From: Sphyrna mokarran
Taxonomy: Eukaryota
Length of the DNA: 64,000 bases
NCBI GenBank assembly: GCA_024679065.1
Contig: JAGIQG010000019.1
Coordinates: 23,994,001-24,058,000 of the forward strand
Direction: 5' to 3'
The notes beneath the pieces are model-generated. The model had not been told where the DNA came from, searched no databases, and saw nothing but the letters and a program-made list of their open reading frames with translations. Position numbers and translations under genes: made by a program. Positions 14,171-51,179 of the stretch are shown in pieces (position 1 is the stretch's first letter; each line of letters starts with the position of its first letter).

Positions 14171-15964
14171 TTTAGATGCGTGTCAGTGGCCACCTTGGCA
14201 AGTGACCAGAAAATCTGGCCTGAAGTCAAAGGACTTTTGCATAGTCCTGTTCTGCCTGCTATGATTTCTGTGGGATGGGAAAGTTCCATCAAATGTATGA
14301 AGCAAGTGCTTAATGCTGTTGGTGTAAAACCCATTATCTGACCACATAGCAGTTTGCATCGAAAAGACAGTTGTATATATGTTTTAAAACAGAAACACTT
14401 GTAGGGTCATGAGGAAAGAATCGGGAAGTCAAACTAATTGGATAACACTTTCAAGGAGCCAGCAAGGGTACAGTAGGCTGAATGGCCTCCCCGTGTGCTA
14501 TGCAGTTCTGTGACATTATGTTATTATCCTGCATCAAATGGTTTAATGTCTGTATCAAACTGGCAGACAGAGGAATTTCATCCAAAGTACTTGTCTGCTA
14601 ATATCACCAAGAGTAATTTCAGGCCTCATAAGCACAGTCATTTTGCAATCGAGCAAACCACAGAAATGAAGTTCTTCGAAAATGCAACTGTAAAAACAAT
14701 GATTTGCATTTATTCTGAATTTAGTAAGAGCAGTTTATATAATCAGATATGAACAGGACACACTTCAGGATCTCTCTATCATTTGCTTTTATAAGCTATA
14801 AAACGATGATACTGTGAGTGGAATATACCAGGCTGGGAATTTTAAACAGCTTCAGTATTACTGAGTATGCACACCATAAACATTTGTGTCTTGTCATGAT
14901 AATTTAGACTGTTAGGGTAAAGGGGGACTCAATTTCACTAAGTCAATTTTGTAGATAAAAATGTCAGAAATGATGCTCCTGGAAACTGAAACAATTTATA
15001 GATCAGTAAACTGAAATGTTCTATCAAGTTGATATATACAACATAATTTCATGATGGCTTTTAAATAATTTGATCTGTGACATGCCTAATTAATTCAGTT
15101 TCTTTCTGGCAGTGATTTATAAGTATAGTTGCTTATCTTCTTCCCAGCATCCTTTGTGCATTGTTAGACATTTAATCTGCCACAAGTGTCTAGGCATACT
15201 CACTCTCAGACATACATTGTGCTGCATTTGAACCATATTATTTTAGTGTACTTAACACTGATTCAAGTTATTAAGTGTCACGCTATCACTCTTATCCATC
15301 CTCCCTGTCAGATAATGCACAGCAGAAAAATAATACTGCTTCGCTTACTCTCCCTGTCATACGATACCATTCAGTGAAAAATACCTCTCAATTGAGCTGT
15401 GATTCAAATACTGTCAAAACCAGATTTGAGAATAAAAGCTATTGTCAACCATGTTGTAGGAGGAAAGTTTAAGAGGAGCATGGCAACATTTGCACGGTGT
15501 GCTCTGCTCAAAATGTTCCAGTCAGGAAGTTCACCAAGTCAATAACAGAGGAAAGTGGCTTCTATATTGAAACACCAATTGCTTAATTAGATAAATAAAA
15601 AAAGTGACATCCGCTGCATGTTCTCTGCTTATCACACTTCAGTGTCACTCATAGCTTCCTGTGTCACAAATAAAAGTCCAATGCAAAAACTCGAAGTACT
15701 CTATAGATACACGAATCACTAAAAGCAAGGGTATCTAATGTGTAGTTTTGACATACACATTCACGGTGAGAATTCTGATAACTTTGAGTTCTCAGCAAGG
15801 TGCTGCATTAATAGAGGTTTGGTTTAGAGGGGAATTACAACGTTGTAACTGGTGTGTTTTGCACAGAGAAAAACTCACCACGTGGATTCATAGCAGGAGC
15901 CATTATTGAGTAACTTTATATGCATCACTCTAAAAGTAAAACACTGAAATTCTCAATCCTCTGA

Positions 15965-16127
15965 AAGAAGTCTTACAATATCAGGTTAAAGTCTAACAGG
16001 TTTATTTGATATCACAAGCTTTCAGAGTGCTGCTCCTTCAAGGTAATAGTAAACTTGTTGGACTTTAACCTTGTGCTGTTAGACTTCTTACTGTGCCCAC
16101 CCCAAACCAATGCCAGCATCCCCATAT
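15965..16127. mobile_element. PLE-derived foldback mini-element with a decayed HHR
   Basis: Inverted arms AAGAAGTCTTACAATATCAGGTTAAAGTCTAACAGGTTTA / TAAACTTGTTGGACTTTAACCTTGTGCTGTTAGACTTCTT. Between them the minus strand reads TGAAGGAGCAGCACTCTGAAAGCTTG. Confidence 0.75.
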
Positions 16128-16493
16128 AATGAATCCCCTGAAGTGGAGGAGAACTTCTACCTGTCTCGAGGTAATAACATGAATTGTTGACCAACTCTGT
16201 TTAAATATTGAGTGGTGGATTGCAGTCTGCATCCTAATTGTACACCCTAAGGAGAATTTTAGCAGTTGCTGATAGCATAAATGAGTAATATTGGATCAGC
16301 CATTTGTAGAGTTAAGAGTTGTGTCTGCTCAATTCCAAGGCATTGCCTGAGGCCAATGGATAATTCCGTTCTGCGAGCCTGACCCACCCCGATTCTAGGG
16401 CAGACGAGGCGATTCATTTCCGGCCATTGTTCTTTAGAATGTTTCCAGAGCAGACACAATTCCAGAGGGTAATCTATTGAAACAATAATGACT

Positions 16494-43992: not shown

Positions 43993-44076
43993 CGATGGTG
44001 GATATGCTGGCGTTGGACTGGGGTAGTTTAACAGGATTATTTGGTATCATGAGCTTTTGCAGCGCTGCTCCTTCAT
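43993..44076. mobile_element. PLE terminal fragment
   Basis: GATATGCTGGCGTTGGACTGGGG..AACAGGATTATTTGGTATCATGAGCTTTTGCAGCGCTGCTCCTTCA, same family as 15965-16127. Confidence 0.7.
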
Positions 44077-46772: not shown

Positions 46773-47385
46773 TATATAACCAAAATGTAAATTACATTCA
46801 ATACATTTAGCTGAATAATTAATGCTAATGTACAAGTTGCTTGTTTACTTAGGAATTGGTATGCAATATGATTGGCTACTTGGAAATATTGAGACTGAGG
46901 GCAGGTTGCTAGTTTGTAGGATCCTGTGTGATTTGCCCCTAAACACTATAATTGTGTTAAAATTTTCATAATGCACCATTCTAAAGTAATTTTACTGACT
47001 AGTTGAAATTCAAATGTCAGTTATAGTAGAATTTTTACCATTAGGTCAGAAGCTCCAGGGACTTTACCATAGAACCTAGACTGAGGTCGGAATTCTACCG
47101 GTGCGGGGGTGAGCGAGGCTCAAAGAACGGCATTTTCCATTGGCCTCGAGTGGGAACATACGAACCTTGGGCAGACGTGCCTGTAAAATTCCATCCTGAG
47201 AGTTCAGCTGCCAGAGATGTTTGGGGTTCTTTTGATAAGAAACCTCACATCACCAGGTAAAAGTCTAACAGGTTTATTTAGTAATCACAAGCTTCTGGCC
47301 AATGCCTAAGTAAACAAACAATTTATACACAAGCATCAATTACTCAGCTAAATATATTGAATGTACTTTACATTCTGATTATTTA
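46773..47385. repeat. ~87-bp AT-rich inverted repeat pair (46773-46859 / 47299-47385)
   Basis: AAAATGTAAATTACATTCAATACATTTAGCTGAATAATT..GTTTACTTAGGAATTGG versus the reverse complement AGAATGTAAAGTACATTCAATATATTTAGCTGAGTAATT..GTTTACTTAGGCATTGG. Confidence 0.8.
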
Positions 47386-47958: not shown

Positions 47959-49709
47959 AAATGTCTTTAAGTCGCACTCGAAATGGCCAGCAATATCCTC
48001 TTTACACCTGTACGGTTGGTCACTATTGGAATAAATCATTAAATGAAGCCTAATTCACCAAGGTAGGGCACAGATTGTTTAATGAATACCAGCAGCAATG
48101 TAATTGTTAATCAGCCCCGAATGATAGAATTGATAGGATTTGATAGGATTGGTTTCAACTCCTTCACCAAGATGGCGCCTTGTGCTAACCACATTTTAAA
48201 CCAGTATAACAACTTAAAACCCCACCTTGGCCATACCCTTGTCTTTTTACCACCTAAAAAATTGGGTAAAATCATCCTGTGCCTTTCAGTCAGACATTAA
48301 ATAAAAGCCCCATTTTCTCTCTCAGATGGATATAAAAGATCGTATGGCACTATTTTTTTTAAGAAGAGCATGGAGTTCATCTGATCAGCCAATTATTACA
48401 GACAGGAAGGGGATTAATGGACACAGTACTCATTTCTCCTCACATCACCCATCCATAGACAGAAAGGTTTTTTGACTTGTTTTCCTCTTTTTTATATGAT
48501 TTAATTTTTTATTAGTAATTCCTCAGAAAATGAGATCGGGTAAACTGATCTGTTTAAACTGATGATTGTTTGCACACATCCAAAATGTGAAAGGAGGGTC
48601 ATAATGTCACAGCAGACTCACACAGTAAAGAAAAGCAGAGAGAAAAGAAAATTCTACAGTGCAGAGACCATGGAGAAAAGAAGCAGTGTTTCTCATAGGT
48701 TCCATAATCCAGACTCAAAGTGTAATGAAGCATTCTTTCGGGGAGGTCGGTGGGCTGGAAAACAGTGCTGGACTTCACACAATGAAATAGGTGTGCAGAG
48801 TTAAACATAGGAAAAAGGAACAAGAGTCGGCCATTCAGCTCTTTGAGCTTGCTCTGCCATTCAACATGATCATGTTTGCTCCTCTATCTCACTGCCATAC
48901 TCCAGAAATCCCTCCATATCCCTTGACATCTTTTGGGTAGTATTCAGAACAGAAAACCTAGTCGAGGGTGATTAACCCAGGAAACTGTGTTGTGCTTTTG
49001 CTCTGTCTGATGGTCAGCCATTCCCTTTCTGCCTCTGCACCCTTCACCTGCAGTGTGACCTTCTCTCTGTACATGCCAATTTAGTCAGCGTTGCAATACA
49101 TGAGTCTGCCACTGATTGACACTCAAAAGCTTGGAAGCACAGTTCTCAAGCATTAAACTCAAATCTCATACTCACACCTACATAACAGAGAGGTAACACA
49201 GATATGCTCCCCCCTCCCCCGACTCCACACAAAGGAAGGCATCACGGTGAATTCCTTCATCATTCAACCTGACAGGCATCGGGGGTGGTGGTGGGCAGTA
49301 TCTTATTCCACAATTATGTTAGGATGCTGGTTCACTGAATGCACTCAACTGCTCTAACTCCTCACCTATTGGGAGGTGGGGGGGCATGTGGACTTCTGAG
49401 ACTCTCAAGGGTTGAAGCTCTTTATTCAAGTGGAATTGAGAAGGACAACTGTGGGGAAGTGGCTACTGTATGACAGTGTAGAGAATGAGGCCTAGTGGAA
49501 AGATGCTCATGTAGAAAAGATGCACATATCAGGATGTCCCAGGTCCTGAGAGAGCTGAGGCTCAGGGCACTGTCAGTGATCCTTAATATTCATTTTGATG
49601 GTCTCTTCCTTTAATTTTAAAATTCTGGAAAATCATGGAGCCAGCTGAGCTGCAATTCATTTTATTGGGATTGAGGAGCAGCAATGATGTTCATGTGTTG
49701 CTACACATG

Positions 49710-49960
49710 ATGTAGAGATGCCGGCGTTGGACTGGGGTAGTAAGAATTCAGTAAGAATCTAGCAACACCAATTTTAAATCCAACCGATTTATTTGATAGT
49801 AAATTTGCAAGCTTTCGACACTCTGTGTCTTAGTCAGGCAAATGCAGTGTTCTGGTCTGCAATAGCACACATATCAACACAGACAGTCACTATCAAATTT
49901 ACTATCAAATAAATCGGTTGGATTTAAAATTGGTGTTGCTAGATTCTTACTGAGTTCGTC
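49710..49960. mobile_element. PLE-derived foldback mini-element (251 bp) with a 9-bp TSD
   Basis: Perfect 60-bp inverted repeat at 49748-49807 / 49894-49953. CTACACATG at 49701-49709 and 49961-49969. Confidence 0.9.
49803..49843 (-). ncRNA. Minimal hammerhead ribozyme-like motif with a variant core
   Basis: AUUUGC-CUGACUA-A-GACAC-AGA-GUGUC-GAAAGCUU-GCAAAU. Stems I and II pair perfectly; position 8 is U instead of G. Confidence 0.7.
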
Positions 49961-51179
49961 CTACACATGGCCAGGAACAGAGCTCTGAAGTGGAGGGGGA
50001 GACAGGGCCTGTTGATCTTCCGGCCAGAGCCTCAGAGAAGACACTACTGGCCAAGGGTATTCCGAATTTCCTACCTCCAGATGTCAGTGGTCCAGTATTG
50101 GAGAAGACTGTATCCCAACAGACAGTAGACCACCAGTGCCAGGTAATGAAAGAGTTGATACCGTATGGATTGGGAAGTCACAGATTGAACATCACCATCA
50201 CTCTGAACTTTCTGGTAGCTCATTTCAGGGCTGCATGTGTGACCCGTGTGATATCTCCCAGTCAGCAATGCTTAAGGTAGGTCACAGATGTTCTCTTTGC
50301 GAGGGCCCATCATATACATCAACTTAAACTGAGACCATGAAATCCAGGACATCAAGGCCATGGATTTCACTTGCATAGCAGGAATGCTCCAGATGCATAA
50401 AATGCATTTACATGACACTGCGCTCCCCTTGGGCGCCATTTTTGAACTATAAGGGATACCACTCCTTCAAAGTCCAGATCACCTGTTGCGCATCACGCAG
50501 GCATATGTCCATTACCCAGGGAGCATTCCATAGTTACATCTTGCAGAGTTCATGGATCCTAGCCATCTTTGAGGGACAGTAATGGTTGAAGGGATGGATC
50601 CTCAGTACTCACAGCTCCTTTTGTTCGAGAGTCATGGGCAGACATAAATTCAAACATTTTAAGGATCTTGGTTCCATTTTTTTTCGAAATAGCCATATGG
50701 ATATCTATGTGTATTTTATAAATACATACAGTGTGAGGTTTCAAACTCTCACACAATGTTTATTCCATAGCCAAAGGCAGGTTACCTGGTTGTTATCACC
50801 TTGCTCTTTGCAGGAGCTTGCCTTGTTTTAGTCACTGCACTTCTGACATCACAGTGGCAATTGCATTTCAGTTATTGGCTTCATTGGCTGGAAAGCACTT
50901 TGGAACATCCTGAGTTTGTGAAAGGCGTTAAATAAATTCAAGTCTTTTCTTTCTTCCTTGAGCGGTAATAGTGGAACACTCGTATTAGTATTTTTCCCTG
51001 TCGTTGAAAACAATAGCAGCTCAAGTGTACATAAAAAGGTCAACCCTCTTAAGGCACATTGTACATTTTCTGTGCTCTCAACCTCTCACTGTCATTGAGC
51101 AAACACGCAGGAAGATTTTCATAAAGACACATTACAAATTATACTTTGTGTATCTCCATCACTATTAGACGGATTAGGG

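Follow-up and report, generated by a model that had tools for sequence, protein, structure and literature searches.

The 251-bp insert at positions 49710-49960 of the window (the whole 64,000-nucleotide stretch of Sphyrna mokarran DNA that was analyzed) is very probably a single, heavily 5′-truncated insertion of an abundant endonuclease-bearing Penelope-like element (PLE), with two short copies of the terminal sequence arranged head to head, the likely result of priming on both target strands. We infer that it is inert debris, immobile as a unit. The locus itself is minor, being one of probably thousands of dead stubs, and its inverted-pLTR layout is already published; it is an ordinary example. 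PLE stubs resemble MITEs and ribozyme mini-elements, however, and are therefore at risk of mis-annotation as new families. In addition, family-wide statistics of tails, arm lengths, alleles, and end points make the origin of the inverted pLTR testable in genome data as well as in the in vitro system already published.

Structure, target site, and age of the insert

Positions within the arms are given as t, the base count from the 3′ end of the PLE. The features of the locus were as follows:

49635..50615, + strand: host, a degenerate Harbinger/PIF (DDE_Tnp_4) transposase gene that carries stops and frameshifts (tblastn) and is split by the insert
49701..49709, + strand: left TSD copy, CTACACATG, ending in 4 bases (49706-49709) shared with the element end
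49710..49743, − strand: one-sided tail of 34 nt (t1-34), absent from arm B
49710..49890, − strand: arm A, the last 181 nt (pLTR end) of a 5′-truncated PLE with RT and GIY-YIG, at 96-97% identity to copies that extend into the RT/EN ORF
49803..49843, − strand: relic of a minimal type-I hammerhead (motif alignment)
49843-49838 with 49808-49803, − strand: hammerhead stem I (motif alignment)
49837-49831, − strand: hammerhead core, with G8 changed at 49832
49829-49817, − strand: hammerhead stem II (motif alignment)
49809/49808 (t100/t99), − strand: predicted hammerhead cut (motif position)
49891..49893, no strand: inversion junction with 3 extra bases, within a 10-bp direct repeat (49889-49898 and 49901-49910)
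49894..49957, + strand: arm B, an inverted tail-less copy of 64 bp running from t98 to t35, with no hammerhead core
49958..49960, no strand: 3 bases that match neither element nor target in register, likely untemplated
49961..49969, + strand: right TSD copy, CTACACATG, flanking the insert

The preliminary description of this DNA had reported two 60-bp arms, 49748-49807 and 49894-49953, separated by an 86-bp spacer, and these are indeed exact reverse complements with a spacer of that length. The arm homology is in fact longer, covering 64 bp (49744-49807 and 49894-49957) with a single mismatch at 49747, a position that is C in 18 of 18 arms of the same subfamily and T in the left arm of the window. 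Because both arms are truncated inside the pLTR, at 181 and 64 nt, the insert lacks an ORF and the whole of it forms one hairpin. Its description as non-coding and hairpin-shaped was thus correct; there was no ORF inside, and the fold z-scores were −16.9 and −18.1 (0 of 200 shuffles each), with either strand forming one long hairpin. The three bases at the inversion junction are likely a templated slip during end joining. At the other end of arm B (49958-49964), the first four bases of the right TSD match t28-31 of the element in register, past the three junction bases, two of which are mismatched; the match could reflect primer pairing at a second start site, or chance.

Harbinger/PIF transposons have terminal inverted repeats and a second ORF (Myb/SANT). 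Identification of the host as a Harbinger relic was supported by a tblastn match (E 3e-19) to L310, an open DDE_Tnp_4 ORF in the same genome; this match was spread across several frames, with stops. The host also matched seven further of the 12 tblastn queries (E < 1e-5), and the short host peptides of the window alone gave no match in Pfam. We found 18 paralogs of the host, 65-77% identical to it, 13 of which also match upstream of the insertion site. All six paralogs that were aligned lack the insert and are continuous across the site, with a single copy of a word resembling the 9-mer that stands on both sides of the insert in the window; therefore, the insertion is real, as had been claimed. 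The genome contains eight open DDE_Tnp_4 frames of 371-660 codons (L309-L315 and L319) among thousands of decayed Harbinger relics; these could be domesticated HARBI1-like genes or, alternatively, young copies.

The TSD had also been called frame-verified, on the ground that removal of the insert restored a continuous transposase frame. This was not borne out, because the host is frameshifted at the site. A base missing from the window near 49652 is present in all six aligned paralogs, and both the intact ORF L310 and the paralog L040 read MEPI.LAV.L at the insertion site; thus the frame that reads open at this point is a shifted frame. The true transposase frame contains a stop there, the shifted frame is brought back by a later deletion, and the host ORF is broken again farther downstream. 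Regarding the 9 bp assigned to the TSD, the duplicate at 49701-49709 and 49961-49969 was confirmed but its length is uncertain; because the final four bases (CATG) are identical to the element's own end, its span is 5-9 bp. Among 53 foldbacks of the family, 45 had flanking exact duplications of at least 6 bp, and in 30 of these they measured 9-12 bp, with the shortest possibly due to chance.

The insert had been considered young. The family is fairly young, and within it the insert is of ordinary age: over 181 positions arm A departs five times from the majority base of 18 arms of its subfamily (two of these positions are polymorphic), and those sibling arms themselves carry 4-14 such differences (median 6). 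Mismatch between the two arms of other foldbacks averaged 4.6% (211/4,610), a value partly inflated by variant-word sampling, and 6 of the 54 had one mismatch or none. At the family rate, the probability of at most one mismatch in 64 positions is 0.20, and that of none in 60 is 0.06. Among the 15 of 86 joints listed for public sequencing runs there was no joint that skips the insert, a result uninformative on an empty allele. Of the runs listed as carrying the sequence, none was an RNA run. One run (X1) bridges the right junction and may be the source sample itself. Another (X3), which bears a different organism label, yielded a 178-nt contig (depth 2.3) that spans the right junction with three differences and one gap; it has only 26 letters on the insert side, under our 31-letter rule, and was left uncounted. 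This contig hints that a related species may also carry the insertion, which would then be not very recent.

Parent element and the mini-element hypothesis

A search of the insert against its own 2.77-Gb genome gave 1,961 candidates, of which 40 were scored. Many of these match insert positions 1-181 at 96-97% identity and then diverge. When copies were extended outward they reached an ORF with Pfam matches to RVT_1 (E 1e-9) and GIY-YIG (E 7e-5), above the cut-off, and in the sister copies L052 and L053 RVT_1 and the C-terminal GIY-YIG domain both exceed the Pfam cut-off within a single ORF. The proposed derivation from Penelope was thereby confirmed, and the suggested check for an autonomous PLE with the same terminus turned up these sister copies encoding RT and GIY-YIG. 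Motifs of the parent ORF include DKG, a linker of the form C-X4-CxxC, and a GIY-YIG motif containing two cysteines; the C-X4-CxxC lies upstream of the GIY-YIG domain in L052, L053, and L056. The Neptune and Nematis clades are described as having a C-terminal GIY-YIG domain and a CX2-5CxxC zinc-finger motif in the RT-EN linker (10.1101/2021.04.23.441226). The parent linker has this form, and by these linker and domain definitions the parent is assigned as a Neptune/Nematis-type PLE. One copy, L162, comprises a full unit of ~3.02 kb and, after it, a second direct pLTR; in this tandem arrangement the 34-nt tail at the element 3′ end leads straight into the following unit's start codon. Two long copies, L052 and L122, both end at ~t2408 ahead of their inverted arm, possibly at a shared pause or joining site.

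Assignment of the insert to a distinct subfamily holds relative to the other PLE ends in the window, which resemble the arms at 74% (15959-16011) and at 90% over 30 nt (43998-44027). It does not extend to the whole genome, which contains the family in very large numbers: a single arm 31-mer, taken in three variants, had 9,239, 8,066, and 1,765 exact matches, or 19,070 genomic places. As for those other ends, 15959-16130 is an older foldback from a different PLE-like family, whose right end resembles a tail and whose arms (15965-16004 and 16050-16089) are 83% complementary, and 43998-44030 and ~47240-47290 are short decayed end fragments of other PLE-like families.

The preliminary description also called the insert possibly ribozyme-bearing. 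Rfam reported nothing in the window at its gathering score and no hammerhead in three loci at E values up to 5; therefore, the hammerhead motif was assessed by alignment. In an alignment of 46 copies, 91% of the stem cells were paired versus 15-39% for slid partners, and one stem II pair showed 14 double-sided changes; in this test, related sequences can beat a shuffle control even without structure. The core (C3-U4-G5-A6-N7-G8-A9) is not intact in the window copy, which has lost G8 at 49832; the commonest intact core is kept in 93 of 152 long arms, and that of the window copy occurs in two. In an anole element, G8C abolished cleavage (PMC11167929). Moreover, the long hairpin of a read-through RNA is predicted to capture the 3′ strand of stem I. 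Thus a hammerhead motif is present, but as a relic, and judging from its bases the window hammerhead is likely dead.

To compare copies we used a family sample of 220 loci (L087-L166 and L169-L308), which were the first-listed places on contig C1 selected by exact 31-mers. From these, 302 arms were parsed, the two in the window included, with 45 of 115 long arms as the reference panel. The 54 other short foldbacks in which both arms were found had 52 distinct inner-end pairs. A 19-mer spanning the window junction had two matches in the genome, the second of which (L032) has different flanks, carries its tail on the opposite arm, and shows the same join as the window minus the slip, leading directly into t91. 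With up to two mismatches allowed, a junction 28-mer matched two places, the window itself and a site whose arm-A side is different. Because the junction is unique and 52 of 54 end pairs are distinct, we conclude that the insert does not represent a mini-element family. The inversion point differs from copy to copy, the very outcome named beforehand as speaking against an amplifying mini-element.

It is accordingly very improbable that the insert is an amplifying, non-autonomous hairpin element, MITE- or retrozyme-like, with fixed boundaries and mobilized by the PLE protein. Its small size, near-perfect inverted repeat, TSD, and hammerhead motif would all suit such an element, and non-autonomous PLE derivatives are described in 10.64898/2026.07.22.740005; however, against at least 19,070 arm matches the junction was found once, inner ends vary, there is no tandem array, the hammerhead has a rare core without G8, and the hairpin is predicted to sequester one strand of its stem I. 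The only twin structures in the sample, L090/L093 and L172/L175, apparently lie in one inverted segmental duplication. These rearranged PLE copies are at ~808-820 kb and 1637-1649 kb of contig C1, coordinates that fit duplication and not transposition.

The window, L032, and L002 are three independent insertions joined at or beside t181, and the joins of the window and L002 carry short, templated-looking inserts. In the unbiased sample no arm ended exactly at t181 and three ended at t177-183; t181 is at most a weak hot spot.

Origin of the inverted arm

An arm with a tail was paired with a tail-less one in 52 of the 54 other short foldbacks, and the tail-less arm started at t33-38 in 36 of 53. 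Short arms without a detected inverted partner numbered 79, of which 38 were tailed and 41 tail-less. Among the 52 mixed pairs the tail arm was shorter in 34, longer in 14, and equal in 4 (P = 0.006). Subfamily alleles were concordant between the arms in 54 of 55 cases at t52, 52 of 55 at t50, and 43 of 45 at t96; at t52, a site with four alleles, random pairing in the 55 short foldbacks predicts 44% concordance. This sharing of the t52 allele supports the earlier suggestion that the second arm arose at integration: both arms were likely made then, from the same source. The junctions of 54 foldbacks comprised 19 with an overlap of at least 2 bases, 18 blunt, and 17 with inserts; alignments that extend by chance inflate the overlap counts, and parsing errors account for a few of the long "inserts".

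Of 200 inner ends of short arms, 86 clustered at t129-154, a range immediately upstream of hammerhead stem I (P = 3e-19; the window and three loci in the duplicated segment were left out of the test). The density there was 3.3 ends per base, versus 0.6-1.3 in the flanking ranges, for inverted and simple insertions alike. The cluster may correspond to the start of a transcript or to a site of pausing.

As the probable origin of the window insert, we propose that the endonuclease made staggered nicks ~9 bp apart. One target 3′ end would prime at the start site beside the ORF start codon, aided by 4-base complementarity, and the other would prime ~35 nt farther in. Both strands would use the same source RNA, both cDNAs would stop early, and the two short cDNAs would be joined by microhomology and a short templated slip. 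The 10-bp junction repeat of the window would then reflect pairing, brief extension, slip, and re-pairing, which we take to resemble polymerase-theta joining. More tentatively, as a wider proposal that could well be wrong, the thousands of stubs of this family might record PLE insertion itself, with both target strands priming one RNA, or the RNA of one source, at starts ~35 nt apart, and with copying that mostly stops at t129-154. If the t129-154 cluster is the transcript 5′ end, as it may be, the stubs would be strong-stop-like cDNAs of the 5′ pLTR, a reading that, if true, connects the two start sites found in vitro with the origin of the inverted pLTR. Among the literature matches listed we did not find "twin priming" for Penelope inverted repeats; a published two-strand model may exist.

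An unlikely but not negligible route to the same one-off insertion is snap-back, in which the first cDNA (t1-181) primed itself at about t91-98 and was copied back to t35. Self-priming is among the proposals for PLE palindromes in PMC3846280, and the window copy would suit it: it belongs to the minority class with the longer tail arm, its arms share alleles, and its junction slip is templated. Elsewhere in the family the tail is on the shorter arm in 34 of the 48 unequal foldbacks, and a tail-less first strand cannot template it. In addition, simple tail-less insertions are as frequent as tailed ones, and L032, with the same join as the window, has its tail on the opposite arm. Thus snap-back appears to misfit the 34 foldbacks with a short tail arm, unless central deletions reshaped them later; the order of events was read from end points alone, and deletions arising later at a palindrome's center could shorten either arm. 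Tail-arm lengths and shared alleles therefore favor, in our interpretation, formation of arm B by priming on both target strands rather than by snap-back.

The inner end of arm B is one base short of the predicted hammerhead cut (t100/t99), as would be expected if the reverse transcriptase had run off a hammerhead-cut RNA, and t95-100 was slightly enriched, with 14 of the 58 ends that fall in t89-128 (uncorrected P = 0.045). We consider run-off an improbable cause of the t98 end: the cut itself had no peak in the family (5 of 58 ends in t98-101, P = 0.70), several of the t95 ends lie within an AT-rich microhomology patch, and hammerhead mutants left insertion unchanged in vitro (PMC11167929). 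Run-off was not supported.

Comparison with known systems

The usual PLE layout is described as an inverted 5′-truncated copy with a one-sided tail of 30-40 bp and a variable TSD (PMC3846280; 10.1101/2021.04.23.441226). Pen2a of Adineta vaga, for example, is given a 31-bp tail, a 9-bp TSD, and a pLTR reaching into the beginning of its ORF (PMC3846280). The insert shares with such inverted insertions of EN+ PLEs the inverted 5′-truncated copy at the 5′ end, the tail at one end, and a TSD of ~9 bp. It is unlike Pen2a-type insertions, as they are described, in that both arms are cut off inside the pLTR and there is no ORF.

Metazoan PLE minimal type-I hammerheads are reported to have stems I and II around a characteristic core (PMC4209133). 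The relic resembles them in its core, in the extra base between 9 and 10.1, in G10.1-C11.1, in the palindromic 15.2-16.2, and in a stem II that varies across the family; in contrast to the hammerheads described there, the window copy has a changed G8 and a stem I strand taken by the foldback. Animal non-LTR retrozymes, as presented in 10.64898/2026.07.22.740005, are likewise short, non-coding, and pLTR-derived, with a hammerhead motif. They are head-to-tail repeats of a fixed unit with an active hammerhead, whereas the insert consists of one head-to-head stub whose junction is unique and whose core is mutated.

The closest comparison in vitro is with Poseidon of Anolis carolinensis (PAc), whose purified protein cuts and extends both strands, initiating at two neighboring RNA sites that delimit the tail (PMC11167929). 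The inverted arm was left unexplained in that study. The family in the window is similar in having two adjacent start sites that bound its tail, apparent cutting and extension of both strands, and a hammerhead near the pLTR-ORF junction. Priming in PAc was reported without target homology (PMC11167929), whereas bases of the element end overlap 25 of 45 TSDs here, a count made without a chance control. The two also differ in the placement of these parts: in PAc the start lies 111-118 nt inside the ORF and the hammerhead overlaps the start codon (PMC11167929), whereas in the window family the outer start site coincides with the start codon, with the hammerhead about 95-135 nt upstream.
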